From Bacillota bacterium (lineage in GTDB: Bacteria > Bacillota_I > Bacilli_A > ML615J-28 > CAG-698), in contig JAEEHM010000112.1 in NCBI GenBank assembly GCA_016280895.1, forward strand, positions 6,713 to 70,712: a stretch of DNA of 64,000 bases. The letters run 5' to 3'. How positions within the stretch are numbered: the stretch's first letter is position 1; each line of letters starts with the position of its first letter. A program made the translations under genes and the position numbers. The notes under the pieces were generated by a model. That model saw only the letters and a program-made list of their open reading frames with translations. It did no database searches and was not told the DNA's origin. Positions 10,430 to 41,278 of the stretch are shown piece by piece.

Positions 10430-10441
10430 GTATGGTATAAT
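10413..10441 (+). promoter_or_regulatory. sigmaA promoter (extended -10) of the valS leader
   Basis: TTGAAA, 17 nt spacer, then TATAAT, with TG two bases upstream of the -10 (TGgTATAAT). Confidence 0.65.
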
Positions 10442-10454
10442 AATATCCGTTATA

Positions 10455-10710
10455 ATTAAAGCGTTGATGAGAAGAGTACATTAGTTACTTTGATAAAGAG
10501 AGAAGTAGTTTGGTGCGATACTTCACGAAGCCTAATGGAAAGTAATCTCGGAGCTGAATGTAATTCATAAGCATTCCGCGGGGAGATATTTAGAGCACGG
10601 CGATACAGTGTAAAAGAAGGAAAATAAATGTAAATTTATTTTTGAATTAAGGTGGTACCACGATTTTATTCGTCCTTAAAAGTAGTTTAATACTTTTAGG
10701 GACTTTTTTT
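10455..10710 (+). promoter_or_regulatory. T-box leader (tRNA-Val specifier) with terminator
   Basis: Stem I elements are present: an AGAGA box and the distal loop GGTGCGA. The candidate specifier is GUA followed by A (10542-10545). The T-box motif AATTAAGGTGGTACCACG lies at 10646-10662. A terminator GTCCTTAAAAGTA / TACTTTTAGGGAC with T7 lies at 10672-10710. Confidence 0.9.
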
Positions 10711-10736
10711 AATAAGCTATAAGTGAGGAGAGGAAT

Positions 10737-22355: not shown

Positions 22356-22482
22356 ATAAAATATAAGCTTATAATATGATGATTATTATAAGCTTTTTTA
22401 ATGCTTAATGATATAATTATTGACTAAAATATAATAATGTATTATTATATATTTGTAATATACAGTAATGAAAGGAAAGAAT

Positions 22483-23403
22483 ATGAGAAGAATAATTTTC
22501 TTATTATCTATATTTTTAATTTTTTTCTTGATGTCATGTAACAAATATAGCAATTGCACTCGTGAAGAAAAAATATTACTAAAACATTTGTGCGGTGCAA
22601 TGGTATTAGATGAAAAAGAAAAAGATAATTTAAATGACTTGATTACTAAATCCTCTGCAAAGGCAGATGAAGGGTCGCATACATTTTCGGAAATGTTATC
22701 TGGTTATAAAGATGGTTATTGTAATTTGTATTTGTGTAGGATTGATAGTAATTATTCTATAATAACTGGTTATATTATTAACAATAACAATGATAATACT
22801 GATTTTATAGATGATATCATCTGGATAAAATTTAATAATTGTAACGATATAATTACAATTCCTGAAGAGTGCGAAAACTTTCGTTTAAAGTATATGTTTG
22901 CTGCATTTGAAGTAGATATTAAAAGAAATATAGTAAGTAAAATTGAACATAATCAAAAATGTGTATATTATAAATACATTACAGATGTCTATTATCAAAG
23001 GAAAGGTTATAAAATTAATACATCATACGTTCTTGATATTAATAACGAAAGTAATATTATTTTGCTTGGATTTTATAAATCAAATGATATAATTCATTAT
23101 GATTATATTAGCGATAAAAACATGCGATGGTCATATAATGTTTATGTTGATAGTTTTTCTTATGAATATATTTATTTCAATAAAAAAGAAATAAACTACA
23201 CAGATAAAGATATAAAAGAAAACTATTTAAATATAATAAAAAAAGAATTTGGAGACTACTATGAAATAGTTGAGGATTATCTAACCGATATTCCTGCTAT
23301 TACGCAAATTAGATATAAAATTGATGGAATGTTCACTATATATGAAAAAGCAGGCTTAAAAATAGACACGTTAGTAAAATTAATAAAGGATGACCTAATA
23401 TGA
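22483..23403 (+). CDS. Lipoprotein of unknown function (paralogue of 52580..53446)
   Basis: SD sequence AAAGGAAAG upstream of the ATG at 22483. Lipobox LMSC. ATGA overlap with the downstream protease gene. Confidence 0.65.
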   Translation: MRRIIFLLSIFLIFFLMSCNKYSNCTREEKILLKHLCGAMVLDEKEKDNLNDLITKSSAKADEGSHTFSEMLSGYKDGYCNLYLCRIDSNYSIITGYIINNNNDNTDFIDDIIWIKFNNCNDIITIPEECENFRLKYMFAAFEVDIKRNIVSKIEHNQKCVYYKYITDVYYQRKGYKINTSYVLDINNESNIILLGFYKSNDIIHYDYISDKNMRWSYNVYVDSFSYEYIYFNKKEINYTDKDIKENYLNIIKKEFGDYYEIVEDYLTDIPAITQIRYKIDGMFTIYEKAGLKIDTLVKLIKDDLI

Positions 23404-24428
23404 AAAAAATTACACTATTATTGATATTTATTGTTACAATTATTTGCTTATATAGGATATCGTCAAATAATGTTTTTGGAAGTCAAACATTAGTTGATGT
23501 GGGGTATGACGATTGTGTTGCGGATGATTCTGGTGACTCTGAACAAGAACGATGGTATTATTTAAATGAATTTGGTTACTCGCATGGCACCTCTTTTACG
23601 TATTTTCATTTGCCTACTAATAAAACCACTTTAAGTTATTTTTTTGCTAATTCTGCATTTAATGATTCTGATTATCACTGGAATACTGATGTTACTGATG
23701 ATGTTGCAAATGAAATAAGAACAGCTTTTGCAAATAGTATGATGAAGTGGAATAATGTTCGTTTTTATTATTATAATGAATATGGCAATAGGACAGAAGT
23801 TCAATTGATAAATGTAGTTGAAGGAACGGATGAAGATCATGATTTGACTATTTATCCAGCGCCTTCTTCTCTAGAGGCATTTGCTGCTACTCAACAAACG
23901 GGAAATTATACGACAATTTATACTGGCAAAGACAACGTTGAACATCGTCATTATGAAAAGTGGTTTACTCAGGTTAATATTGATTTCTTTTATACGCATA
24001 CTGGGCCAGATTATACATCAGAACAAGTTAGGATAAGAAGGGAAAGAACTGGCGAGCATGAGATAGGGCATATTTTGGGTCTTGATGATATTGATGTATG
24101 TTGTAGTTTAAACCCTGACCACCATGAAGAATTGTTGATGGGATATGGTGATATGGAAAATAGATCACTAAATGCAACATACAAAGATATAGCAGGAGTG
24201 GCAATTACAAGGGGCTTTCATACTGATAACGATCATATGTGGATGAGGCGTGATAATGGTGATTCTATAGATATGATATGTGCCATTTGTAATGGAGTAA
24301 AATATAATGTAGAATTAGATAGCGGTGGATTGACATATCAAGGTAAAACTTTTACAGAATTTGAAGATTGTATTCATCATGGACACAGCAATTCAAATAT
24401 GCTTTTAGTTGCAAAAGATAATGATTGA
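23400..24428 (+). CDS. Secreted metzincin-like zinc metalloprotease (HEIGHILGLDD), N-terminal part of a frame interrupted by TGA
   Basis: N-terminal signal peptide. The zinc motif HExxHxxGxxD is snapalysin/matrixin-like. The ORF ends at a TGA that is in frame with ORF 24444..26111. Confidence 0.7.
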   Translation: MKKITLLLIFIVTIICLYRISSNNVFGSQTLVDVGYDDCVADDSGDSEQERWYYLNEFGYSHGTSFTYFHLPTNKTTLSYFFANSAFNDSDYHWNTDVTDDVANEIRTAFANSMMKWNNVRFYYYNEYGNRTEVQLINVVEGTDEDHDLTIYPAPSSLEAFAATQQTGNYTTIYTGKDNVEHRHYEKWFTQVNIDFFYTHTGPDYTSEQVRIRRERTGEHEIGHILGLDDIDVCCSLNPDHHEELLMGYGDMENRSLNATYKDIAGVAITRGFHTDNDHMWMRRDNGDSIDMICAICNGVKYNVELDSGGLTYQGKTFTEFEDCIHHGHSNSNMLLVAKDND

Positions 24429-24443
24429 TACTTCTTTAAATGC

Positions 24444-26111
24444 ATGTATTGTCGCCATATTGATACAATTAAAATTGAAGATACATTACATGTTTACAAT
24501 AGTACTCAACCAGTAGCTCGTAATACTATTATTGAAGCAAGAGAATCTAAATATTATAAATTGAATTTAAGTTTTGATAAATATTATGAAATAATAGCAA
24601 GTGGCAGCACAAATATTAATTTAAAATTATATGATGAAAATTTTAATGAGATATCTATATCAGATATTAATTATTCATCTTTAATATGCCAAACAGTACA
24701 AAATCTAAATTCTGGCACTTATTATTTAGAAATCATTAATGAATCATACACGAGTAATAGTGTATCATTTAAAATTATTTCTAATAATTCTCAGTATCTA
24801 TCAATTGATGAGAATGATATATTAATAAATGCATATAATGGTATAAGTGAATATAATTATTATAATGAGTCCGGTCCGGGTTTTTATAAATTTAAAATAA
24901 GTGCAAGCAATATTGATGGAACAACATATTATTATCAAGCAGGAGCTTTGAAAATATATAATGATTCATCTAGATCAACTTCCTCAATAATGAATAAGTA
25001 TGATTATGACACTTATAATAACAGAGGTATAAATCAAGCCATCAACAAATATAATGAAGATTATATAATAGTATATCTACCAAGTAATGGATATTATTAT
25101 TTAGATATAGATGTTTCATCAATTAATCTTGCATCATTATCTATAGAAATTTCATCTTTAAGTATAGATGAACTAGATTTATTTGATTTATCTGAAAATA
25201 GTAATGATGATGCATTCGAATTTCACGAAAATGATTATGGAGATAATTTCATCAAGCTAAACATCAAACAAGCAGGTTATTTTAAAATAACAGCATCATA
25301 TGATGGTGATTTAAGTCCATATATTTTAGTTTTAGTAATAAAAATAACATATGATGAAGCTCTTCATTCTTATGTAAGAGATGAAAAATTAAAAGAAGAA
25401 TTTAATAAAAACGATTCACAAGAATATGTGCTAACAGATTTAGAAGAAGGCATTTATTATATAGGCTACCTTAATAAAACAGATAATTATTATACATCTA
25501 TTAGTCTTCTAAGGATAATTACAGAATCAGGTTCAAGCCATTTAGTAGCTGATGCAATAGATTATGATGATTATGGAAGTGAAGTAAGATTCAATAATGG
25601 ATTACGTGGTGGAACTACACTGACTGTAGGATTTACAAGGTTCATATATTTAGATGATCCATCAAATGTACCATCAATATCAAGACTTAATTATTATTGG
25701 TATACATCAAATGAAGAAGTGGCAACAATATCTGAATATGGAACATTACTTGCAAAATCACCTGGAACTGTAAAAGTAATGGCAGTATATAAAAGTAATC
25801 CATCTATAACATATGTGAAAGAATTCACAATACTTGCAGATAATAGAATTAATGATTTGATTATTTATGATACAGATAGTGTATTATATACAAGCCCTAG
25901 TCAATTATATCAAATAGAATTAGATGATTATAATTCATATTTTCCACAAATATCATTATATAATTGGAATATTTTAAGTTCTACTAATAATTATACTATT
26001 AGTGAATGGGGAACATTTTATTTAAGTGGAAATGATGTAATTGTGATAGAGGCTACATCCAAACTTAATTCTAAATTGAAGATAAGAATAACATTGACGG
26101 TGATGATATAA
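24444..26111 (+). CDS. PPC-like (pre-peptidase C-terminal) repeats plus a Big_2 domain; probably the C-terminal part of the upstream protease
   Basis: Same frame as 23400..24428, with only 5 sense codons between the TGA and this ATG. There is no SD sequence. Three repeats resemble YYKLNL...GTYYLEI, and there is a Big_2-like segment YYWYTSNEEVATISEYGTLLAKSPGTVKV. Confidence 0.6.
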   Translation: MYCRHIDTIKIEDTLHVYNSTQPVARNTIIEARESKYYKLNLSFDKYYEIIASGSTNINLKLYDENFNEISISDINYSSLICQTVQNLNSGTYYLEIINESYTSNSVSFKIISNNSQYLSIDENDILINAYNGISEYNYYNESGPGFYKFKISASNIDGTTYYYQAGALKIYNDSSRSTSSIMNKYDYDTYNNRGINQAINKYNEDYIIVYLPSNGYYYLDIDVSSINLASLSIEISSLSIDELDLFDLSENSNDDAFEFHENDYGDNFIKLNIKQAGYFKITASYDGDLSPYILVLVIKITYDEALHSYVRDEKLKEEFNKNDSQEYVLTDLEEGIYYIGYLNKTDNYYTSISLLRIITESGSSHLVADAIDYDDYGSEVRFNNGLRGGTTLTVGFTRFIYLDDPSNVPSISRLNYYWYTSNEEVATISEYGTLLAKSPGTVKVMAVYKSNPSITYVKEFTILADNRINDLIIYDTDSVLYTSPSQLYQIELDDYNSYFPQISLYNWNILSSTNNYTISEWGTFYLSGNDVIVIEATSKLNSKLKIRITLTVMI

Positions 26112-30605: not shown

Positions 30606-31634
30606 ATGAAAAAGTTTGTAGGTATTTTATTTATATTTACCTTTTCATTAATACTTTTTGCATGTAAGAAAGTAGATACAGAACTGCTTACCGTGCCTAC
30701 TGAAAAAGTTAATGTTAATTTCAGCATTGCTGATTTTAATTTAGTGAATGATGAAGGTAAGGAATGGGTTTCTTTTAATGTAATAGCAGAAACAAGTGTT
30801 CAATTAAATGTTGAATTTGATTTATCATATGTTTATTATCATGAACAAGGTGCTTATATTGATGCTTCTTTAACATCACTTGCTAGCTTTGATGGAAGGA
30901 TTAATAGAGGAACTAATCTTTTAGATTTTAAAATTGAATTAAAAGAAGAAAATTATGATGATTATATTTACATTAAGTTAGAAAATAATAGTGATAAATA
31001 TAATTATATTATCTTCAAAATGGTAGATAAAAGCCTTATATCAATTGCACTTGATGTTTTAAGTAAGGATGCTAATAATGAAATTGCTAAAAAGATAGAT
31101 GATACAATCAATACTATTGATGTATCTTCAATTGAAATGAGCATTGATTATGATAATAAAAAAGTGCAAGCCTTAGGTGCTGGTTATGTATTGAATGCTG
31201 ATTTTAGTGATGATTATATTATTGTTGAAATTGTGTTTAGTTCTAAGGCACATTTAACAAATGATTTTGATAAATTAGCAATTAAAGTTAATAATGAAAG
31301 TGCTAAAGGTAATTTATATATTGATAATAATAAATATTATTACAAAGAAGAAGTTGAAAAAACAAATACTGATGTTATTATCAATTCTATTTCTTTAACA
31401 TTTGATTATCTAAAGCATTCAGAAGAAATTAAGAAAGCAGAATACACTGCATTAATGAGTAATCCTGAATATAATAAGATTACAATTACTATTACTTTAA
31501 ATAGTGGATATGTATTTTCTTCTGATTTATCTTTAACAATTAATGATAAAAATATCGATAAATCTTTATATAAAATTGATAATAGTGTACTAACTTATAT
31601 CTTTGATGATCCTAATTGGAGTGGTTTCTATTAA
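30606..31634 (+). CDS. Lipoprotein of unknown function
   Basis: Lipobox LFAC. No recognisable domains. Confidence 0.55.
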   Translation: MKKFVGILFIFTFSLILFACKKVDTELLTVPTEKVNVNFSIADFNLVNDEGKEWVSFNVIAETSVQLNVEFDLSYVYYHEQGAYIDASLTSLASFDGRINRGTNLLDFKIELKEENYDDYIYIKLENNSDKYNYIIFKMVDKSLISIALDVLSKDANNEIAKKIDDTINTIDVSSIEMSIDYDNKKVQALGAGYVLNADFSDDYIIVEIVFSSKAHLTNDFDKLAIKVNNESAKGNLYIDNNKYYYKEEVEKTNTDVIINSISLTFDYLKHSEEIKKAEYTALMSNPEYNKITITITLNSGYVFSSDLSLTINDKNIDKSLYKIDNSVLTYIFDDPNWSGFY

Positions 31635-31670: not shown

Positions 31671-31699
31671 TTGACAAATATTGTAATATAGGTTAAAAT
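31671..31699 (+). promoter_or_regulatory. sigmaA promoter driving the riboswitch leader
   Basis: TTGACA (31671-31676), 17 nt spacer, TAAAAT (31694-31699). Confidence 0.7.
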
Positions 31700-31711
31700 A
31701 TGTTTGTAAGA

Positions 31712-31778
31712 GGTAATGGGCAAAGCAGGGGAGACCTTGTGACGCAAAGCTATAGGGCCTGAAAAGGTAGCCAGTTGC
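31712..31778 (+). promoter_or_regulatory. c-di-GMP-I (GEMM-I) riboswitch aptamer 1
   Basis: GGGCAAAGC; a hairpin CAGGG-GAGA-CCTTG with a GNRA loop; GACGCAAAGC; GGGCCT...GGTAGCCAGTTGC. This matches the conserved GEMM-I core. Confidence 0.85.
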
Positions 31779-31844
31779 AAAATGGGCAAAGCATGGGAAA
31801 CTATGTGACGCAAAGCTATAGGACCTGAAATGGTAGCCAGTTGC
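31779..31844 (+). promoter_or_regulatory. c-di-GMP-I (GEMM-I) riboswitch aptamer 2
   Basis: A second copy 66 nt downstream, with the same conserved blocks. Its hairpin CATGG-GAAA-CTATG shows compensatory changes relative to aptamer 1. Confidence 0.85.
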
Positions 31845-31865
31845 ATAAAGCAATTGGCTTTTTTT
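31836..31865 (+). terminator. Riboswitch expression platform: intrinsic terminator
   Basis: Stem GCCAGTTGC / GCAATTGGC (9 bp, one G-U), loop ATAAA, then T7. The 5' arm is the 3' end of aptamer 2. Confidence 0.8.
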
Positions 31866-31882
31866 GTTTATTAGGTGATATT

Positions 31883-32671
31883 ATGAGAAAAAAAATAATT
31901 TTGTCCATAATTAGTATTATATTGACTGGCTTTTGCTTGGTTACATTAACATATTCGTGGTTTGCGTTTAATGATACAGTTCAAACTACTGGTATGACAA
32001 TTAGTGTTAAGGGAGCTGATGATATTTTTATCGAAGAGTTCCATATTTATAAGCGAGATCAGGAAAATAATGCTATCGAAGAAGTTTCAAATAATATAAC
32101 AGATGATCCTTTATACAATAAACCTGTTAGTTTAAATCCTTATGATACAATCATTAAAGAAAGAAATGTTGGAACACATATTGTTATTTCAATTTTGGTT
32201 AAAAATATTCAATTAGGAAAAACAATTAATATTTCTGCTTTTAATAATAACGCGATATCAACAGAAGATAGATTTGAACCATTAGGTAACTATTTGTCTA
32301 ATATTAGTGGATTCCGTTGCCGTTGTGGTCAATCAAGCGACACAATTGAAACTGCATTTGGTTCATTTACTGATGAAGAAATAAATAGCTTTGTAAGTGT
32401 AAGTACTATTGATGATGGAGAACATCAATGGGAAAATTCTAAATTATCAACACTCATTATGACTTTAAGTAATTATGATGATAAAGTATTTTATGAAGAA
32501 GGCTCAACATCTCCACAACTTAGAGTATATATAGAATTATCTTACAATGAAGAATTAGTTACTGCTTATTTGAATCAAAATGGTTCATCTACAGACTTTG
32601 GTTCCGTTTTAGAAAATGAAGTTCATTTTACAAATGACTTATTACCATTCTTATTTGAATATTCGAATTAA
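31883..32671 (+). CDS. TasA/camelysin-like secreted protein with a SipW-type signal sequence
   Basis: SD sequence AGGTGA upstream of the ATG at 31883. The N-terminus MRKKIILSIISIILTGFCLVTLTYSWFAFNDTV resembles the B. subtilis TasA signal/N-terminus (...GGGTWAAFND). Confidence 0.6.
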   Translation: MRKKIILSIISIILTGFCLVTLTYSWFAFNDTVQTTGMTISVKGADDIFIEEFHIYKRDQENNAIEEVSNNITDDPLYNKPVSLNPYDTIIKERNVGTHIVISILVKNIQLGKTINISAFNNNAISTEDRFEPLGNYLSNISGFRCRCGQSSDTIETAFGSFTDEEINSFVSVSTIDDGEHQWENSKLSTLIMTLSNYDDKVFYEEGSTSPQLRVYIELSYNEELVTAYLNQNGSSTDFGSVLENEVHFTNDLLPFLFEYSN

Positions 32672-32698
32672 AAAAATATATAGAAACGAGGAAATTAT

Positions 32699-33330
32699 AT
32701 GAGAAAATTGACTATATTAAGACATATAATTTCGCTAATGCTGATAGTTGTATTAGGATTCACTATTACTTATTCATGGTTTGCGAGAAGCAATAATATT
32801 GACCCACAATTAAGTGATGCAACTATCATTAAACAGTATTTCCATACTGGTTCAGGTACAGAAGAAGATCCATTTGTAATTACACGTCCTGTTCATTATT
32901 ATAATCTTGTTCAATTATTCCAAAGAACAAGTGGATTTGCGGTAGATGGTGATTCTTCAAAAGTATATTATTTCCAATTAGGTTATGAACTTGATAATAC
33001 AAGTGAAGGCTTGGAGTTTTATAATTATGATGATGATGGTAACCAAATTAATACATCTGGTAATAAATATTCTAAAGAATTGAACTTGGAATTCTATAAT
33101 GGAGACAATGCTTTACTTCCTATTGGAACTAGTGATATACCATTTAATGATGTCTTTAATGGAAGTGGATTAACTGTTAAGAATCTACATGTAAAAGCAA
33201 CTGAAACAGTTGGTGATGTTACATTTGGTACTGCAGATATAGGTATTTTTGGTTTTGTAACAGAAGAAGCATCAATATCAAATGTATATTATTCTAATTT
33301 TGATATTGATTTAACCGGTACAGATTATAC
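32699..33330 (+). repeat. Near-identical ~630 bp block, copy A (5' end of the 755 aa gene)
   Basis: Hand alignment to 35102-35733 gives roughly 95% nucleotide identity, while the rest of the two genes is strongly diverged. Confidence 0.85.
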
Positions 33331-34966
33331 AAGAACAGTAAGTAGTCATAATATAGATGTTCATGATACTAATGATACTGGAACTGCTGATGTTGTTTAT
33401 GTTGGATACGTTGCTGGCCATATCGTTGACGCTACATGCTTTAGCAATTTCTACATTAATAGCTGTGAAATAATTGGCCAAACTTCTAGTTTTAGAAGTG
33501 ATTGGGGTTATTTTGGCTATTGTGAGAATGCAGAAACAATTGACGAATTTATAGAAAGAATTAATGGAGGACAAGGCTCTGATGCTGGTTGGGGTGGTTC
33601 ATTTATTTCGAAAGATTATACTGCATTAGCATATTCTATTCGCCCAAATAACACAGGGACTTGGACAAAACAAGAGTCAGGCCCAGGAGGATATAATATG
33701 TCATTCACAGCATCTTCTGGCAATAATCCGAACAATTATGGAATTGTATATCGGTTAAGAGATGGCTCTTATGTTCCTCTAAAATTTAATAATGATGGAA
33801 AATCTGATATGATGAACACTGGTTATTTAGTTGGAAGCAATGTAAATAATACAGGAGTTAATGCTTCACCAAAAATTTCATCATATAGATTAGTAAATAT
33901 TGGCAATGCTTTAAGTGATACTGCATACAATGATATGCAAAAAACATATTCGACAAGCACTGCAAATATTACATATACTGATAATAAATTGGAAGTTTTG
34001 ACTTACTACAATGGACAATGGGTAAGAATACAAGATGAACACAATTCAGGTAACAATACTAAAAATTCTTTAATTAAAAATTATAGTAGAGTTTCGGTCG
34101 AAAATTTAAACTTTGTTAAATATAATGATTCGCGTAATGCGTTACAAGAATTAATGACAGACCAAAGTTATGTGCATGGAATACATTTTGACAATAATCA
34201 AGTTAGTATTTCTAATTTGTTGACAATTCCTGCTAACACTGCAAGAATTAACGGTATACAATATGATACAACCTATCAAGTTCCTAAAGGCTCAATTAAT
34301 TTTAATTTAAAAGAGTCGGGCGTTATAAATTTCTTTGCTGGAACTTACAATTCATCGAATGTTGATCTGAATTTCTTCTCCTTATATGAAATTACTAGAA
34401 ATGGTGGTAATATAAGTAAAATAAAAGAAATTGTAGAAATATTTCAAGATGCCGATGACAATACCAAGAAAGTATATAAGTATTCTGATAATACTTATTC
34501 AGCTGGAAGAAGAGGTGCATCAGTATTTAATGTTTCTACAATCTTAAAGGGAGTTGCGCCTGTAAAAAACATGCTTTATTATTTTGAATTGCCAGTTAAT
34601 TCTGGAGAATATGCAATGGGTGTTGCTGGCTCAACACAGGGCGCATATATGGTATATCTTGATTTGTGCGCAAATGCTAATAATAGTAATCCTGAACAAA
34701 TTGTTGTTGACAATTTTGCAACAGTCGAATATCGTTCTGCAAGTGACACAATTGAAAACAACATTTTGATATTGACATTCAATCAAAATAGTAACTTAAA
34801 TGTATCTGTAAAAGTTGTATTTGATAAAGAAGAAAATTGTTATAGTATTTTTACTAGTGCTAATATACCTATTACAGTTACGATACTAGATAGTAATTAT
34901 ACATATAAATTTAATAATATCACTATTTCATCCGAAGTAGGGTCTTATACGATAACATCCCCTTAG
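32699..34966 (+). CDS. Large secreted protein with a SipW-type signal, a GLUG-like beta-helical region and a conserved C-terminal module
   Basis: N-terminus ...LGFTITYSWFARSNN; GSGTEEDPFVITRPVHYYNL; FNGSGLTVKNLHV...IGIFGFV repeat pattern. The C-terminal module is shared with the 1598 aa paralogue. No LPXTG motif. Confidence 0.6.
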   Translation: MRKLTILRHIISLMLIVVLGFTITYSWFARSNNIDPQLSDATIIKQYFHTGSGTEEDPFVITRPVHYYNLVQLFQRTSGFAVDGDSSKVYYFQLGYELDNTSEGLEFYNYDDDGNQINTSGNKYSKELNLEFYNGDNALLPIGTSDIPFNDVFNGSGLTVKNLHVKATETVGDVTFGTADIGIFGFVTEEASISNVYYSNFDIDLTGTDYTRTVSSHNIDVHDTNDTGTADVVYVGYVAGHIVDATCFSNFYINSCEIIGQTSSFRSDWGYFGYCENAETIDEFIERINGGQGSDAGWGGSFISKDYTALAYSIRPNNTGTWTKQESGPGGYNMSFTASSGNNPNNYGIVYRLRDGSYVPLKFNNDGKSDMMNTGYLVGSNVNNTGVNASPKISSYRLVNIGNALSDTAYNDMQKTYSTSTANITYTDNKLEVLTYYNGQWVRIQDEHNSGNNTKNSLIKNYSRVSVENLNFVKYNDSRNALQELMTDQSYVHGIHFDNNQVSISNLLTIPANTARINGIQYDTTYQVPKGSINFNLKESGVINFFAGTYNSSNVDLNFFSLYEITRNGGNISKIKEIVEIFQDADDNTKKVYKYSDNTYSAGRRGASVFNVSTILKGVAPVKNMLYYFELPVNSGEYAMGVAGSTQGAYMVYLDLCANANNSNPEQIVVDNFATVEYRSASDTIENNILILTFNQNSNLNVSVKVVFDKEENCYSIFTSANIPITVTILDSNYTYKFNNITISSEVGSYTITSP

Positions 34967-35101
34967 GGGCAATAATTATATATAAAAAGGGATGAAGTTT
35001 TTTATCCTCTTTTTGATACTTTTAAACAATACAATCATGAAAGGAAAGGAGGCTTAATACAAGTATTAAGATAAATCTTTTTATAAGTATTACAATTAAA
35101 T

Positions 35102-35733
35102 ATGAGAAAATTAAACATTATTAGACACATATTTTCAATTTTACTTTTATTAGTATTAGGCTTTTCTGTGACTTATTCATGGTTTGCAAGAAGCAATAAT
35201 ATTGATCCACAATTAAGTGATGCAACTATCATCAAACAGTATTTCCATACTGGTTCAGGTACAGAAGAAGATCCATTTGTAATTACACGTCCTGTTCATT
35301 ATTATAATCTTGTTCAATTATTCCAAAGAACAAGTGGATTTGCGGTAGATGGTGATGCATCAAAAGTATATTATTTCCAATTAGGTTATGAACTTGATAA
35401 TACAAGTGAAGGCTTAGAATTTTATAATTATGACGATGATGGAAACCAAATTAATACTTCTGGTAATAAATATTCTAAAGAGCTGAACCTAGAATTTTAT
35501 AATGGTTCTAATGCATTACTTCCAATTGGAACTAGTGATATACCATTTAATGATGTCTTTAATGGAAGTGGATTAACTGTTAAGAATCTACATGTAAAAG
35601 CAACTGAAACTGTTGGTGATGTTACATTTGGAACTGCAGATATAGGTATTTTTGGTTATGTAACAGAAGAAGCATCAATATCAAATGTATATTATTCTAA
35701 TTTTGATATTGATTTAACTGGTACAGATCCAAC
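35102..35733 (+). repeat. Near-identical ~630 bp block, copy B (5' end of the 1598 aa gene)
   Basis: See copy A. Confidence 0.85.
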
Positions 35734-38700
35734 TAGAACTGTTAGTGGTCATAATTCTGATGTACATGATAGTGATAATAATCACACTGCTGATTTAGTA
35801 TATGTAGGTTATATTGCAGGACATGTTAATTTAGCAACTACTATTTCTAATGTATATATCAATAACTGTAAGATTATTGGTGGAAATGCAGCTAAAAGTA
35901 GCTTTGGTTATTTTGGCTGCGTAGAATCTACTGGTGATGTTGATGTTCCTACTCTTGGTGAATTAATTGCTAATTTGCATACATCTGGCGAAGGAGCAGG
36001 TTTTGGTGGCTCTATCAAGATGAAGGATATACTTGAAAGACTTGTTGCTATTGCAAGTACTAATGTTAGTTCAACAATAACTACATATGGAAATATTGAA
36101 ACAATAACAATTGATGAAAGAAAAAATACACAGGTTTATAATACAGTAAGTACAAAAAATATTACTTATATTGACACTAGTCAATATAATAGAGATGATT
36201 ATCGATATTATAAACACAGTGATTATGATGGACAATACTATTTTATTGACTCATTGTCTGGAGATCATAGATATGAAGGTCTATTTGGAACAAATAGTTT
36301 AAATAAAAAGTCAATTATCACTTTTACATACAAAGATAATGATTTAGATGCTTGGTACATTAAAAATGGTGATACCTATTTATCTGCTAGTAATTTAGCT
36401 TTAGCATCTGCCAATGCTGAAGATCAAGCAGCTAAATGGGTTTATGAAGAGAACAGTGATGGAACATATTATCTTTGCTGCTATTTAGAAACATATACAA
36501 ATGATACAACTGTTAAGTACTATTTGAATAGAAGTGGCAATTATGGCCTTACTATTTCAAATTCTGCATCAACAAAATGGAATTTGACTAATGTTGATTC
36601 AGGTGATAGTTTTACTTCTAAATTATATACTGTTGTAAATGGTGAAAATCGTTATATAGAATATGATTCTAATACTAATACATGGAAATTAGTGCCTTAT
36701 TTATCATATTATATTATTAAACAAGGCGATAACAATTATTTATCTAATAATGGTAGTGACATTATTAATACAACAACTGAAGCTAATGCTATGAGGTTGA
36801 TTTCTTCAACGAATCCATTAACTGATAATAGTGATATATCTTTATACACTATAATTGATAATGAAAAGAAGTATTTAATATGTGATGGCGAATTGAAGAT
36901 TGCTAATAGTCCAACTCAATGGCATTATGCTAATAATGAACTATCAATAACATATTCAAAGGATTCTTTACTTGATATTAAATATATTTTAGGCTATGAT
37001 GGTACCAAATGGGGAGTTTATGCTGTTTCAGGTAAAGTCATTAATGACGGAAATGATCATTACATGACTGTTCAAAATGGTGGCGTTGGTTCGTCTGATG
37101 AATCAAGTGCTAGTTTATGGCAGTTTTCTAATTCAAGCGGTAATACTGCAATTTATACTGTTGTGGATGGAGAAATCAAATATTTGTCATATAGTACAAG
37201 CAAAGGTTTATATTTTGATGACGATTCGTTCGAATGGAAACGTTCAGGCAATATTTTCTATTTTACATCTGGAAATACTGACTATTATTTAGGCTATTCA
37301 AATGGATGGTGTGTACAAAAATTAGATTATCTAGTAATAGGTTCTGACAATAATTATTTACGTGTTACTGGTGTTAATCAATTTGAAAGTACTACACAAG
37401 AAAATGCAACACATTTTTATTCATCTGGTTTAAGTGAATCATCATCAAGTGGAACATTGTATTGTGCAATTAATGGTGCATATTATTACTTAATTAATGA
37501 TAATGGTGCATTATCGACTAGCGATACAACACAAACTACTTGGACATATAATGCAGATGGAGTTCTAAAGAGTGGTAATTATTACATTGATTTAATAGAT
37601 ACTACTTGGACTATTACTCATTTAGCAAACGGAGAAGGATACTACTATTTAATTAGTAGTGGAAACAATTATTTGTCAGCTAATAATACTACTATCGCTA
37701 ATGAAACATCAAAAGCAAGCGCTACTAAGTGGATTTTCAGCAATGATGATGGTAATAATTCTTCAGGCACTATTCGTAATGCAGCGACTACTAATTCGTA
37801 TTTGTATGGCTCTGCAAGTTGGTGGGGTAATGGAACGTTCGAATGTGGAACAACTCAATCATCATGGACTAATAACAATAGAGTTTTATCTGTTGACGGT
37901 GGTGGTGGTTGGTTTTCTTCAACAGGATACATTCGTTTTAATAATAATGCGTGGTCACTAAATACTAATAATGGTACAACATTGACTTTTGAAAGACGTA
38001 CAATTAATGTTAATATAAGCGAAATGGTTGGAGATATTCCTAATGTTTATGAAACTGATGTTACTAGATCATATTCTGTAGATGTTTTAAATAAGAATGT
38101 AAATAGTGATGAAACATTTACAAAAACTTCTCAACAAGAATTTGAAAAATCTGTAAAAGCAAACGTAAATGGTGGCTATGACACTTATTTTCCAATTAAA
38201 ATAGCTGATTCGGACGAAGGTAGTTGGTATGATGCGAGCGATCCTTATAAGGTTTCAATGAAAAATACTGGCTATATTATCGGTGGTGCTCGATTGTATG
38301 ATACTGAACCAAATACATCTGCTTTCCAAACAGGTTTTGGTGATATTCGTATTTCATATTTCCCAATTAGTAATATTTCATCTTCATATGATGATTCTGC
38401 GCTTACTTCATCAAAAATATCTTATAATAACAATTATCTAATATTAAATGATGCTAAAAACGCTGTTGCTAATACAACTGACGAAGAAAATGCTATTTTT
38501 TGGGACTTTACATCTACCGCTACTAATACTTATAGGATTAGTACAGTAATTGATTCTGTTACTTATTATTTAAGATATAATAATGGTTTAACTATCACAA
38601 CTGATCAAGGTGATTCAACAAGTTGGACATATGTTTCAAGTAATAATAGGTTTTATTCTAGAACTGGTAATAATAATAGAGGATATTATATCCAATATAG

Positions 38701-39898
38701 CAATGGTTGGAGTACTACTAATAATATTAACAACCCTGGCAATGCAACAAATTTAACAGTAACTAAGGGTGGTTTTACTACAATCTATACCGTAAATGAT
38801 AATGGACGTACTCAAACTCCAGCTAATACAGATGCATTTAAAGAAGCTAAGAGACAACTTGTTGAAACTTTAAACGGAAGCGCTTCAGTTTATGGACTTC
38901 ATTTTATGAATGCACAAATTTCTAAGGATTACTTGGTTACTGCTCCAAAAGTTGCTGTGTTGGGTAGAGAATTTGATAATTATGAAATGCCACAGGATAG
39001 TATTGATTTCCACGTAATTGATAGAGGTTCAATTAATTTCTTTGCTGGTAATTATTTTGACGGTAATAATACTTTCTTTTCATTACATAAGGTATTTAGA
39101 GACGGAAACAATAAAATTACTGATATTATGGAAATAATTGAAGTATATGAAAAAACAAATGCAAATCAAAACTATATTTACAAATTAAAAGATAGTAGTG
39201 GTAATTATACATTTACAAATGCAGATGGTTCATATACTGGTGCAACATCATTAGCTTCTGGATATAATAGTACTCCAATATTTAAAACATCTTGGATAAC
39301 AAATCCTGGTATTTCTAAAGGATCTCAATTGTATTATTTCGAAGTTCCTTGTAATGCTGGCGAATATTGCTTGGGTTCTGTAACTGGTAAAACTGGTGCA
39401 TATCTTGTATATCTAGATATCGCAAGTAATGGTGGCGAAGCTATTAGTAATGTAATCAGTGCTGAAGGCAATTCAGTCACAAAAGCATTTAATGTTGAAT
39501 ATCGTGATAGACCTGATGCAATAGAAGAAGGCGGACATTCAATTATTCAAATTGGTGCTGATATTCCAACTGGTGCTACAAGCTCTAACTTCTCAATTGA
39601 TGTAAGTTTTGATAGTAGCCAAACTGGTGCCAATAATGAATATGCAAATGGCTTGTATACGATAACAGTCGTTAACAAAACTGGTGCAAATGTTACACTT
39701 GATGTATTTATATGCGATAATAATGATAATGCATTTGATACATTCCCATATGCTTATCGAATAAAATACATCAACGAGTCGCATTCTACGGAAACTACTA
39801 TTCATACTTTAATAACCGATAAGGACTATTTCCAATCAATGGGTTCATTTACAATACCATCGAGTGGAGATGCAGTAGAAAGTTCTTATGTTAGTTAA
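35102..39898 (+). CDS. Giant secreted protein: SipW-type signal, GLUG-like region, about six beta-trefoil-like (x-W) lectin-type modules, and a conserved C-terminal module
   Basis: The first ~205 aa are nearly identical to ORF 32699. Residues ~417-955 and ~1106-1205 carry repeated Y-L-x...(K/Q/L)-W-x-(F/Y) subrepeats. The C-terminal LYYFEVPCNAGEYCLGS...GAYLVYLDI matches LYYFELPVNSGEYAMGV...GAYMVYLDL in the paralogue. Confidence 0.6.
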   Translation: MRKLNIIRHIFSILLLLVLGFSVTYSWFARSNNIDPQLSDATIIKQYFHTGSGTEEDPFVITRPVHYYNLVQLFQRTSGFAVDGDASKVYYFQLGYELDNTSEGLEFYNYDDDGNQINTSGNKYSKELNLEFYNGSNALLPIGTSDIPFNDVFNGSGLTVKNLHVKATETVGDVTFGTADIGIFGYVTEEASISNVYYSNFDIDLTGTDPTRTVSGHNSDVHDSDNNHTADLVYVGYIAGHVNLATTISNVYINNCKIIGGNAAKSSFGYFGCVESTGDVDVPTLGELIANLHTSGEGAGFGGSIKMKDILERLVAIASTNVSSTITTYGNIETITIDERKNTQVYNTVSTKNITYIDTSQYNRDDYRYYKHSDYDGQYYFIDSLSGDHRYEGLFGTNSLNKKSIITFTYKDNDLDAWYIKNGDTYLSASNLALASANAEDQAAKWVYEENSDGTYYLCCYLETYTNDTTVKYYLNRSGNYGLTISNSASTKWNLTNVDSGDSFTSKLYTVVNGENRYIEYDSNTNTWKLVPYLSYYIIKQGDNNYLSNNGSDIINTTTEANAMRLISSTNPLTDNSDISLYTIIDNEKKYLICDGELKIANSPTQWHYANNELSITYSKDSLLDIKYILGYDGTKWGVYAVSGKVINDGNDHYMTVQNGGVGSSDESSASLWQFSNSSGNTAIYTVVDGEIKYLSYSTSKGLYFDDDSFEWKRSGNIFYFTSGNTDYYLGYSNGWCVQKLDYLVIGSDNNYLRVTGVNQFESTTQENATHFYSSGLSESSSSGTLYCAINGAYYYLINDNGALSTSDTTQTTWTYNADGVLKSGNYYIDLIDTTWTITHLANGEGYYYLISSGNNYLSANNTTIANETSKASATKWIFSNDDGNNSSGTIRNAATTNSYLYGSASWWGNGTFECGTTQSSWTNNNRVLSVDGGGGWFSSTGYIRFNNNAWSLNTNNGTTLTFERRTINVNISEMVGDIPNVYETDVTRSYSVDVLNKNVNSDETFTKTSQQEFEKSVKANVNGGYDTYFPIKIADSDEGSWYDASDPYKVSMKNTGYIIGGARLYDTEPNTSAFQTGFGDIRISYFPISNISSSYDDSALTSSKISYNNNYLILNDAKNAVANTTDEENAIFWDFTSTATNTYRISTVIDSVTYYLRYNNGLTITTDQGDSTSWTYVSSNNRFYSRTGNNNRGYYIQYSNGWSTTNNINNPGNATNLTVTKGGFTTIYTVNDNGRTQTPANTDAFKEAKRQLVETLNGSASVYGLHFMNAQISKDYLVTAPKVAVLGREFDNYEMPQDSIDFHVIDRGSINFFAGNYFDGNNTFFSLHKVFRDGNNKITDIMEIIEVYEKTNANQNYIYKLKDSSGNYTFTNADGSYTGATSLASGYNSTPIFKTSWITNPGISKGSQLYYFEVPCNAGEYCLGSVTGKTGAYLVYLDIASNGGEAISNVISAEGNSVTKAFNVEYRDRPDAIEEGGHSIIQIGADIPTGATSSNFSIDVSFDSSQTGANNEYANGLYTITVVNKTGANVTLDVFICDNNDNAFDTFPYAYRIKYINESHSTETTIHTLITDKDYFQSMGSFTIPSSGDAVESSYVS

Positions 39899-39905
39899 CA
39901 TTCTA

Positions 39906-39937
39906 AGAGATAAAACAATTGTTTTATCTCTTTTTTT
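39906..39937 (+). terminator. rho-independent terminator ending the riboswitch-controlled operon
   Basis: 11 bp stem AGAGATAAAAC / GTTTTATCTCT followed by T7. Confidence 0.85.
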
Positions 39938-39971
39938 ATGATAAAATATTATTAAATTGAAAGAGGTTAAT

Positions 39972-40667
39972 ATGAAATATTGTTTTGCATCCTTAGTAGT
40001 AGAAATGAATATAAGATATGAACCATTAAAATCACAATCTATTCCATATGAAATAGAAGAAGATAAAAAAGCAGATGTAATAATTCCTCTAATGGATGAT
40101 ATGATAAATAAATATCATGAATTATATCCTCAATTATCAATTGGTGATTGTGAATATGTATTATATGGTGCATTTTTCTATAAAGAATTATTAAAACATA
40201 AAGGAATATTACTACATTCATCATGTGTAGTAAAAGATAATTATGCTTATTTATTTTCGGCACCATCTGGTACTGGTAAATCAACTCATACATCTTTATG
40301 GCTAAGTGTTTTTAAAGATGCTAAAATATTGAATGATGATAAACCAGCAATTTTAATAAAAAATGATAAGATTTATGCTTGTGGTACTCCATTTTCCGGC
40401 AAAACAAACCTAAATTTAAATGAAGAATATGAAATAAAAGGAATTGCGTTTTTAGAAAGATCACAAGATAATTGGATAAAAGAAATGGATATAAATAAGT
40501 CCATCTATTCAATCCTTAACCAAACAATCAGACCGGATGATGAGGCTAATATGGATTTAGCTATTAACACAATTGAAGAAATTGTGAAAAGAATTAAAAT
40601 CTATAAATTTGGCTGTAATATAAGTAAAGATGCTGTTTATACATCATATGAAGGTATGAATAAATGA
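39972..40667 (+). CDS. HPr-kinase-C-terminal-like P-loop protein of unknown function
   Basis: GILLHSSCVVKDNYAYLFSAPSGTGKSTHTSLWL...ILNDDKPAI resembles the HprK-type P-loop arrangement. SD sequence AAGAGG upstream of the ATG at 39972. Confidence 0.4.
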   Translation: MKYCFASLVVEMNIRYEPLKSQSIPYEIEEDKKADVIIPLMDDMINKYHELYPQLSIGDCEYVLYGAFFYKELLKHKGILLHSSCVVKDNYAYLFSAPSGTGKSTHTSLWLSVFKDAKILNDDKPAILIKNDKIYACGTPFSGKTNLNLNEEYEIKGIAFLERSQDNWIKEMDINKSIYSILNQTIRPDDEANMDLAINTIEEIVKRIKIYKFGCNISKDAVYTSYEGMNK

Positions 40668-41278
40668 AAATAGATATTATTGAATCTTATTTCACATCTA
40701 ATTGTTATATAGTGCATATTGATAATAATGTTTATATCATTGATCCATCTGTGAATGTTGATGAAATAAAAGCTTATATCAATAAGGACGAAGAAGTAAA
40801 AGGAATATTATTAACTCATAGTCATATTGATCATATTTATTATTTAAATGAATGCCTTGATTATTTTAATGTGAAGGTTTATTGTTCAAAACATGCAAAA
40901 GAAATAATTGAAAATAATGAATATAATTTTGCTTATGAAATGGGAATCGATAAAAAAATTACATTAGATTCTAATAAATCAATCTATATAAAAGATAATG
41001 ATATAATAGATAATCTCTTTAAATGCATTGAAACACCAGGACATTCTATTGATTCCATTACATATGAAATGGATGATTGTTTATTCACAGGTGATACCTT
41101 ATTTGATAGAAGTGTCGGAAGAAGTGATTTATATAGTGGTGATGAAGAAGTATTGAAAGCATCAATTAAAAAATTGATGGTACTTCCTGATCATACAATA
41201 TATCCGGGACATGGTAATTCGGCACCTTTAAAGATGCAACTAATTTATAATTATTATGTTTTAGATTTAATGAAATAA
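40664..41278 (+). CDS. MBL-fold metallohydrolase
   Basis: THSHIDH motif, and later the GHS and GDTLF motifs. ATGA overlap with the upstream gene. Confidence 0.8.
   Translation: MKIDIIESYFTSNCYIVHIDNNVYIIDPSVNVDEIKAYINKDEEVKGILLTHSHIDHIYYLNECLDYFNVKVYCSKHAKEIIENNEYNFAYEMGIDKKITLDSNKSIYIKDNDIIDNLFKCIETPGHSIDSITYEMDDCLFTGDTLFDRSVGRSDLYSGDEEVLKASIKKLMVLPDHTIYPGHGNSAPLKMQLIYNYYVLDLMK

Follow-up and report, generated by a model that had tools for sequence, protein, structure and literature searches.

In Firmicutes, cyclic di-GMP (c-di-GMP) riboswitches are known to act on sortase substrates, type IV pili and flagella, and their targets include CD2831/CD3246 and pilA1 of C. difficile and a collagen adhesin of B. 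thuringiensis, the latter with a triple-tandem riboswitch. The tapA-sipW-tasA operon of B. subtilis is controlled by SinR/Spo0A. Among the systems closest to the one presented here, TasA and TapA belong to the fibres of B. subtilis, TapA being the minor/anchoring subunit (PMC9245690). The archaeal TasA-like filaments (AbpA/AbpB bundling pili and CanA cannulae) are formed without a chaperone, the N-terminus generated by signal peptidase I serves as the donor strand, and AbpB has been proposed to be an initiator with distal adhesive domains (PMC9245690). The sipW-bsaABCRSD operon of C. perfringens encodes BsaA, a beta-rich protein of ~23 kDa with SipW-dependent secretion and polymerisation and no sortase, as well as further secreted proteins, and is controlled by a two-component system and temperature (PMC7395162). 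Here we present a three-gene operon behind a c-di-GMP riboswitch, found in a stretch of 64,000 nucleotides (nt) from a Bacillota bacterium (assembly GCA_016280895.1, contig JAEEHM010000112.1, positions 6,713 to 70,712), which is called the window below.

The genes g1, g2 and g3 are co-directional and are framed by the riboswitch terminator and a closing terminator (Table 1); all three reading frames are uninterrupted across 7.8 kb, and the riboswitches, the terminators and the ribosome-binding site of g2 are intact. We consider this operon to be, on balance, probably a c-di-GMP-induced secreted or surface adhesion system made from two uncharacterised protein families, which would be processed by a SipW-type signal peptidase, with g1 as a scaffold and g2 and g3 as adhesins. 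An earlier reading of the same DNA (the original prediction) had placed an operon under c-di-GMP control between two terminators; both terminators have been found, and the control is supported by RF01051 aptamers and a competing terminator, with the correction that the leader carries two aptamers instead of one. In full-text literature searches, neither a SipW system under a c-di-GMP riboswitch nor these protein families were found to be described, and the original prediction knew of no described example of the architecture either.

Related loci have been collected by a pattern scan of species-representative genomes, in which 134 stretches were confirmed and 78 distinct loci were kept. Open reading frames (ORFs) were called and clustered in 86 sources, and the related loci, 85 of which entered the comparison of gene context, total 1.19 Mb. 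The hosts are metagenome-assembled genomes of rumen/gut Bacilli and Erysipelotrichaceae, Ruminococcus albus AR67 and KH2T6, Lachnospiraceae, Christensenella, Oscillospiraceae and others. The main clusters are listed in Table 1, and lesser recurrent ones are c8, c13, c22, c10 and c23. By hhalign, sA and sB are related over the full length (99.2%), and sC, sD, c8, c13 and c22 are interrelated (96.8-99%); only the N-terminal ~45 residues are common to these two superfamilies. For 18 small subunits of the second class, neither a recurrent family nor PF12389 was found in Pfam at E <= 1, and their profile had no match among the PDB sequences.

The three products begin with MRKKIILSIISIILTGFCLVTLTYSWFAFND (g1), MRKLTILRHIISLMLIVVLGFTITYSWFARSNN (g2) and MRKLNIIRHIFSILLLLVLGFSVTYSWFARSNN (g3), and in each of them MRK(K/L) leads into a hydrophobic stretch of 20-25 residues, after which T-Y-S-W-F-A follows. 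ORFs and motif scan thus agree with the original prediction of three adjoining genes with a common N-terminus of this kind. A six-frame scan of the window with a loose form of the motif gave 7 matches, three of which are g1, g2 and g3, and the remaining 4 fall in stop-interrupted frames. In the related loci, the motif stands behind a hydrophobic stretch in 33 of 41 sA, 16 of 26 sB and 50 of 89 LARGE proteins, and in 8 of 514 other ORFs. Residues around the Trp have been counted in two unbiased alignments, of 96 g1-family (A3) and 70 large-family (A2) sequences. Position -3 is T/S/A/V/G in 95 of 96 g1-family and T/S in 68 of 70 large-family sequences, position -1 is A/G/S/T/C in 96 of 96 and A/S/G in 70 of 70, respectively, and position +1 is W in every sequence of both alignments (96/96 and 70/70). 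Position +2 is chiefly F in the g1 family and F or L in the large family, and position +5 is N in 77 of the 96 g1-family sequences and chiefly A in the large family. Besides the N at +5, the small family has a conserved V (+8) and a conserved G (+12) after the Trp, and hydrophobic residues stand at every second position from +13 to +17 (GMxIxV). In general form, the motif reads [T/S]-[Y/F]-[A/S/G] before the invariant Trp, behind a basic tip and a hydrophobic helix. It agrees with the rule for positions -3 and -1 at type I signal peptidase sites, and cleavage is predicted before the Trp.

The original prediction had likened these N-termini to the SipW-cognate signal of TasA. The mature TasA chain in PDB 8AUR begins with AFNDIK, which confirms the TasA sequence used for comparison, and hhalign places T-Y-A-W-F of the g1 family in register with T-W-A-A-F of TasA (verified cleavage site GTWA↓AFND). 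Since "FND" after the motif is confined to g1 and its close relatives, the better register is T-Y-S↓W-F against T-W-A↓A-F. TIGR04088 had no match in full-length g1-g3 at E <= 1 or in five isolated N-termini at E <= 10, in searches where HMMER filters may conceal very weak matches. Of the earlier likening, therefore, the cleavage register has stood, and the profile match and the general "FND" have not.

Each of g1, g2 and g3 has a single hydrophobic segment, and both LPXTG and a C-terminal hydrophobic run are absent from them. Sortase substrates have been rejected, since LPXTG is lacking, and type IV pilins as well, since in the g1-g3 sequences the motif stands after the hydrophobic helix and G↓FxxxE is missing. 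Choline-binding and S-layer-homology domains are excluded for g1-g3 because the Pfam and NCBIfam scans were empty, so that the earlier statement on these three motif types is confirmed. The first ~40 residues of g1 and of the sD proteins (P0005-P0009) are near-identical and their mature bodies are unrelated, which indicates that the N-terminal module moves between protein bodies.

The strongest argument for reading the shared N-terminus as a SipW-type cognate signal is that the rare SipW gene lies inside the same operons in related loci. The representative of the SipW cluster matches NF046067 (NCBIfam SipW; E 1.4e-30) and TIGR02228 (archaeal-type signal peptidase I; 76.6 bits, cut-off 51.85). 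By tblastn, SipW homologues were found in 20 of the 86 sources, within the same operons and often in two copies. The order sA-LARGE-SipW-AAA-DUF2357-SipW-GGDEF/EAL is seen in Clostridia (L011, L030, L035, L053, L063, L069 and L076), and c22-AAA-DUF2357-SipW in Bacilli (L049, and L071, where the end of the locus truncates it). In loci with SipW, the sA and LARGE genes match the g1 and g2 profiles with E down to 1e-69 and 1e-161, respectively. About a quarter of the loci have SipW at a distance of ~8 kb or less, which is far more than chance would give. Genes for c-di-GMP enzymes also lie close by, GGDEF-EAL in 15 loci and GGDEF in 7.

Membrane-anchored McrB-like AAA proteins and DUF2357 (McrC-like) proteins recur in 14-15 loci, between two sipW genes or behind c8-c13-c22, in operons controlled by c-di-GMP riboswitches. 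The best PDB match of the AAA protein is McrB 6hz4 (E 1.4e-3), and it also matches the PADLOC candidate PDC-M26A (4e-39 to 8e-42). This pair may be either a hitch-hiking defence system or a part of the assembly machinery.

Another important feature of the related loci is the coupling of genes with each other and with riboswitches. The DNA preceding the gene is available for 74 large genes; in 60 of them the gene immediately 5' is a small one, and 51 of these 60 pairs have a gap of <= 30 nt or overlap. The gene linkage that had been expected is therefore found for the small-large pair, and the exact three-gene set is not conserved: L002-L004 have a small gene and one 1585-aa (amino acid) protein, which in L002/L003 is the g3 orthologue, and L001 has two small and two large genes. 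In the syntenic relatives, the cassette is flanked by yqeK/rsfS and a lipoprotein gene at one end and by the ScmC-like, MBL and hrcA genes at the opposite end; the riboswitch is present in all syntenic close-relative loci and the cassette content varies. Many loci of other species likewise have a minimal form, made up of a riboswitch, a small gene and a large gene. In L001, an sD gene (~265 aa, 9959-10813) stands between the riboswitch and the g1 orthologue; sD is absent from the window.

By using a covariance model (R1) built from seven c-di-GMP-I aptamers, 79 aptamers of this class have been detected within the related loci. The gene next downstream is sA in 27, sB in 23, c8 in 7, sD in 5, sC in 4, c23 in 4, SipW in 2 and LARGE in 1 (counts including two overlapped tandem copies added by hand), so the aptamers stand almost only before system genes. 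Co-occurrence with GEMM-I in related genomes, which had been put forward as a check for the three-gene set, is thus seen for genes of the system. At least 40 of 63 evaluable operons begin with an aptamer by a strict positional criterion, which misses several cases. Beside the small-large operon, a second operon (c8, c13, c22, then AAA and DUF2357) has c-di-GMP-I aptamers of its own (Table 1). Since these extra aptamers drive the second operon, the system is regarded as a multi-operon c-di-GMP regulon. A tblastn search of a plasmid collection for an annotated homologue returned only an unrelated protein of the type IX secretion system.

In the leader of the window operon, a promoter-like site lies directly 5' of aptamer 1. 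Both aptamers exceed the RF01051 gathering score (35) over model positions 1-87, and aptamer 1 reaches 93.1 bits with R1. The two overlap by 8 nt, and for this reason aptamer 1 was hidden in the first Rfam search; default Rfam/cmsearch output reports aptamer 2 only, and aptamer 1 was found by searching the upstream stretch separately. The tandem and terminator are also present in the syntenic loci L001 (9826-9966) and L002 (6407-6548), with an overlap of 6-8 nt across the three loci and one terminator per tandem. The terminator hairpin has an energy of -15.1 kcal/mol, and its 5' arm, AGCCAGUUGC, includes CCAGUU, which is the 3' strand of an aptamer-2 helix. Aptamer 2 and the terminator are therefore mutually exclusive, and from this pairing we infer the direction of the switch: binding of c-di-GMP would lead to read-through, i.e., an ON switch.

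For g1, relatives of ~260-300 aa were obtained in 229 representative clusters, and a third homologue search, made with alignment A3, yielded six new proteins only. The AlphaFold2 (AF2) model of g1 has a mean predicted local distance difference test score (pLDDT) of 90.7 and a predicted TM-score of 0.78, and consists of a helix including the motif (aa 2-29), an unstructured part (aa 30-48) and a beta-rich domain of ~210 aa with a few helices (aa 49-262). The original prediction had called g1 a TasA/camelysin-like subunit, and this assignment is not supported by Pfam, PDB profile search, hhalign or Foldseek. Neither Pfam nor NCBIfam had a match for g1 at E <= 1; 96 g1 relatives gave no recurrent Pfam family, and PF12389 was absent at E <= 0.01. 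Among the PDB sequences, the g1-family profile found the transmembrane segment of FliL only and no TasA. The hhalign comparison of the A3 profile with TasA aligned residues 6-31 (the signal peptide) only, with a probability of 1.8%, and for seven small-protein families the similarity to TasA was likewise limited to the signal peptide. In Foldseek against PDB, the best match of the g1 model was worse than E 1e-3 and TasA was absent from the top 50; the weak neighbours include the donor-strand filament subunits FimG, CS20, the PapG pilin domain and CanA (E 0.006-0.13), which give a hint, the matches to CanA (E 0.045-0.13, TM 0.2-0.34) being not significant. Donor strands of TasA-type and chaperone-usher subunits are N-terminal, have alternating hydrophobic residues and are disordered in the monomer (PMC9245690). 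By analogy, the GMxIxV segment of g1 (aa 37-42), which falls in a segment with pLDDT < 50 (aa 36-44) in a model otherwise averaging above 90, may be such a strand.

Over the first ~310 aa, the identity between the large proteins g2 and g3 is 79%, and they have in common a C-terminal module of ~300 aa (31% identity, E 3e-31 by BLASTP), which bears the most conserved motifs of the family, GxINFFAGTY and GAYMxYLD; these two have been used as search patterns. GSGTEEDPFVI occurs in both, so that this segment and the common module are as originally noted. In the family, the conserved head after the signal has the consensus YFHCGxGxExDPFVITRPVHLYNL... PIGxxxxPFxGxFDG. The g2 homologues form 100 clusters, all of which are annotated as "hypothetical" and none of which has a Pfam domain; for g2 and g3 themselves, no Pfam or NCBIfam family was found at E <= 1, the weak I66 matches described below aside. 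The GLUG-like repeats of the original prediction have not been recovered, as PF07581 has no match in g1-g3 at E <= 1. In the AF2 model of g2 (pLDDT 86.9), the N-terminal helix (aa 2-32) runs through the motif. Foldseek gave no PDB match below E 1e-3 for g2, its weak neighbours being CBM35/discoidin-like modules and the glycosidase GH146 (TM-score 0.08). Against BFVD it gave one convincing partial match, a phage "putative IgA1 protease" (probability 1.0, 223 columns, rmsd 4.4 A, 19% identity). Despite the failed GLUG profile, this match speaks to some extent for the original "GLUG-like" description.

Since BLASTP of g3 against itself revealed no repeats at E 1e-2, five repeat modules of ~100-120 aa and a sixth beta-trefoil-like module, each consisting of three YL...W sub-repeats, have been delimited in g3 by eye and then aligned (A5). 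The profile of these modules gave only weak matches, all of them to beta-trefoil proteins (SeviL lectin E 0.024, Symfoil E 1.1). Pfam I66 (peptidase inhibitor, likewise a beta-trefoil) matched the modules weakly (E 0.03-0.12), and the Ricin_B profile found no match in g3. A lectin-like role of the modules is plausible, and the giant lectin-bearing paralogues originally proposed may be retained in the form of putative carbohydrate-binding modules in the large proteins, resting on weak matches. Near their heads, g2 and g3 share a block of 540 nt with 92-100% DNA identity, except for one 60-nt window at 82%, and the flanks (the signal-peptide codons and the downstream part) have 43-68% identity. 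Because such a block lies inside diverged paralogues, recent gene conversion is suggested to have homogenised the head domain.

Table 1. Features of the operon, recurrent clusters and related elements (window positions unless a locus is named)
Feature	Position	Strand	Basis or content
Sigma-70-like promoter (TTGACA-17-TAAAAT), inferred function	31671..31699	+	11/12 consensus matches, best of region
c-di-GMP-I aptamer 1	31709..31782	+	RF01051, 58 bits
c-di-GMP-I aptamer 2	31775..31848	+	RF01051, 59.8 bits
Intrinsic terminator, expression platform	31835..31869 (hairpin 31835-31859)	+	10-bp stem, T run
g1 (small subunit, family sA)	31883..32671	+	ORF, 262 aa
Predicted signal peptide of g1, aa 1-25	31883..31957	+	Predicted cleavage T-Y-S↓W
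g2 (large protein, family LARGE)	32699..34966	+	ORF, 755 aa
g2 block near-identical to g3 35176-35715	32773..33312	+	Sliding-window DNA identity
g2 C-terminal module, aa 475-733	34121..34897	+	BLASTP with g3 aa 1246-1541 (38837-39724)
g3 (large paralogue of g2)	35102..39898	+	ORF, 1598 aa
Five repeat modules of g3, aa 414-965	36341..37996	+	Alignment A5
Sixth beta-trefoil-like module of g3, aa 1103-1210	38408..38731	+	Alignment A5
Closing intrinsic terminator	39905..39942 (hairpin 39905-39932)	+	12-bp stem, 4-nt loop, T run
LARGE cluster			g2/g3-like large proteins, 83 loci
sA cluster			g1-like small proteins, 41 loci
sB cluster			Small proteins, 25 loci
sC cluster			Small proteins, 23 loci
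sD cluster			Small proteins, 5 loci
SipW cluster			Signal peptidase, 17 loci (20 sources by tblastn)
AAA cluster			Membrane ATPase, 15 loci
DUF2357 cluster			McrC-like protein, 14 loci
GGDEF-EAL cluster			c-di-GMP enzymes, 15 loci
GGDEF cluster			Diguanylate cyclase, 7 loci
AAA/DUF2357 example	L069 10105-15281		
AAA/DUF2357 example	L030 7761-12539		
AAA/DUF2357 example	L007 1-6858	-	
AAA/DUF2357 example	L049 1-7000		
Second-operon aptamer	L007 6966-7046	-	
Second-operon aptamer	L065 4158-4238	-	
Second-operon aptamer	L071 11573-11649		
Second-operon aptamer	L041 13093-13177		
Second-operon aptamer	L037 6806-6884		
Second-operon aptamer	L034 12967-13045		
Second-operon aptamer	L069 946-1026		

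In the adhesion system that we favour, c-di-GMP would bind the tandem aptamers, block the terminator and turn the operon ON. The products g1-g3 would be exported by Sec and cut before the Trp by a SipW-type peptidase encoded elsewhere in the genome. The new N-terminus of g1, WF-x-x-N-x-x-V-x-x-x-G-M-x-I-x-V, would then pair with the neighbouring subunit in a donor-strand-like manner, g1 would thereby form a stalk or scaffold, and g2 and g3 would be carbohydrate-binding adhesins attached to it. Fibre formation is proposed by analogy, as the system parallels TasA/TapA/SipW and BsaA/SipW in logic, without detectable TasA homology. Several results weigh against this proposal. As the original prediction had already stated, a SipW homologue is absent from the window, where neither tblastn with 26 SipW queries nor Pfam scans covering ORFs with lengths of 140-290 aa detected one. 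The TIGR04088, PF12389 and GLUG profiles all fail, the hhalign comparison with TasA is not significant and Foldseek gave nothing better than E 1e-3 for g1; given these failures, the case for polymerisation and donor-strand pairing is one of analogy and of a single low-confidence segment. The AF2 models place the motif within the N-terminal helix, which is also compatible with an uncleaved anchor, and an A/S↓W site could be a substrate of ordinary signal peptidase I as well. The lectin assignment, based on E-values of 0.02-1, is suggestive only.

In the main rival explanation, which we regard as unlikely, the N-termini would stay uncleaved as signal anchors, with an aromatic Y-S-W-F belt at the membrane interface, and g1-g3 would be type II membrane-anchored individual adhesins forming no fibre. 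The continuous helix through the motif in the g1 and g2 models agrees with this, as do the lack of another anchor in g1-g3 (LPXTG or a C-terminal transmembrane segment) and of SipW in the window; however, AF2 commonly renders cleavable signal peptides as helices, and the strict small residues at -3 and -1 in 166 relatives are needed by a peptidase site and not by an anchor. The SipW genes within homologous operons, often in two copies, also argue against anchors. The second rival explanation is ordinary Sec secretion with cleavage by the housekeeping signal peptidase I. There, g1-g3 would be carbohydrate-active enzymes or binders of plant or host glycans, and the motif a habit of the lineage, without a dedicated peptidase or assembly. 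The sequence A/S-X-A/S↓W does fit the general rule of signal peptidase I, g2 comes closest in PDB, though weakly, to the glycosidase GH146 and to CBM35 modules, and the hosts are gut/rumen Firmicutes such as Ruminococcus albus. We nevertheless judge this to be distinctly unlikely: profiles of glycoside hydrolases, lyases and carbohydrate-binding modules found nothing at E <= 1, the GH146 TM-scores are 0.08, the +1 Trp is invariant across two unrelated protein superfamilies, and the tight small-large coupling with SipW embedded in operons points to a dedicated pathway.

There is also a small chance that the locus does nothing on its own in this genome and is only the variable, perhaps decaying, outer part of a larger system. 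Full clusters elsewhere add sC/sD/c8/c13/c22, SipW, the McrB-like ATPase and DUF2357, none of which is in the window, and the gene-conversion block of g2 and g3 would reflect ongoing rearrangement; yet the three frames and the expression signals of the operon are intact, and the minimal form with riboswitch, small gene and large gene is seen in many loci of other species. Beyond the induced adhesion system that we favour, a wider view is held tentatively: the window may contain the core of an undescribed class of c-di-GMP-controlled filaments or adhesins, widespread in gut and rumen Firmicutes, with two new subunit superfamilies and an assembly role of McrB-like/DUF2357 proteins. The superfamilies sA/sB and sC/sD/c8/c13/c22 and the giant adhesins would then all be marked by [T/S]-[Y/F]-A↓W as a signal for dedicated SipW-type peptidases, and in the full form of the system the membrane-anchored McrB-like NTPase and DUF2357 would act in assembly or secretion, not in restriction.

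The window has a G+C content of 28% and outside the operon contains mostly housekeeping genes, including yqeH, yqeK/rsfS, hrcA, grpE, the valyl-tRNA synthetase gene, type III glutamine synthetase and RelA/SpoT. A T-box leader (10455-10680, 107 bits) lies 5' of the valyl-tRNA synthetase gene (10737-13370). Immediately 5' of the riboswitch promoter is a gene for a 342-aa lipoprotein (30606-31634; signal ...LILFAC; cluster c11), which is kept in close relatives only and has no family assignment. Genes for a ScmC-like/HprK-related P-loop protein (TIGR04249 E 6.5e-7, under the cut-off) and an MBL-fold hydrolase follow 3' of the operon terminator (39957-41278); they are kept in close syntenic relatives only and elsewhere are unlinked to the small-large system. 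Since these upstream and downstream genes are conserved in close relatives only and lie outside the riboswitch-to-terminator unit, they have been rejected as parts of the operon. A three-gene insert (22468-26111), not present in the syntenic locus L001, comprises genes for a lipoprotein (311 aa), a secreted protein with a metzincin-type HEIGHILGLDD motif (342 aa) and a protein of 555 aa, none of which has a Pfam match. Likewise, a 936-aa ORF (58294-61104) has no Pfam match at E <= 1e-5.

If the preferred reading is correct, many uncultured gut/rumen Bacilli and Clostridia and the cultured Ruminococcus albus share a c-di-GMP-switched surface system outside the database families, and the SipW/TasA principle, in which secreted subunits that assemble by themselves have a signal peptidase of their own, extends to new folds. 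Dozens of orphan c-di-GMP-I riboswitches would gain a concrete output, and candidate adhesins for attachment to plant fibre or mucus would be at hand. The invariant +1 Trp and the McrB-like ATPase within the operons are unusual and specific features that can be put to the test, and more than a variant of the SipW type is possible if the McrB-like/DUF2357 pair serves assembly.

Comparison with the described systems places the operon as follows. With the AbpA/AbpB and CanA filaments it has in common that CanA is among the weak Foldseek neighbours of g1; the matches are not significant. The BsaA operon resembles the g1 system in its proposed function and is regulated without a riboswitch. With the riboswitch-controlled adhesins of C. 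difficile and B. thuringiensis, the operon shares a c-di-GMP aptamer followed by a terminator; there, this platform switches on surface adhesion genes, and tandems are known. Those adhesins are LPXTG proteins or type IV pilins, whereas g1-g3 are neither and belong to other, unannotated protein families. Differences from tapA-sipW-tasA are that the g1 family has no detected sequence or fold similarity to TasA/PF12389, that +1 is an invariant Trp, that the partners have 755-2667 aa and adhesin-like modules, and that c-di-GMP riboswitches are used and sipW is not in this window. Nevertheless, as in tapA-sipW-tasA, several secreted products of one operon share a special signal peptide with the -3/-1/+2 register T-x-A↓x-F, an archaeal/ER-type peptidase is encoded beside its substrates (here beside the putative substrates in homologous clusters), and a larger accessory protein accompanies a small beta-rich subunit.

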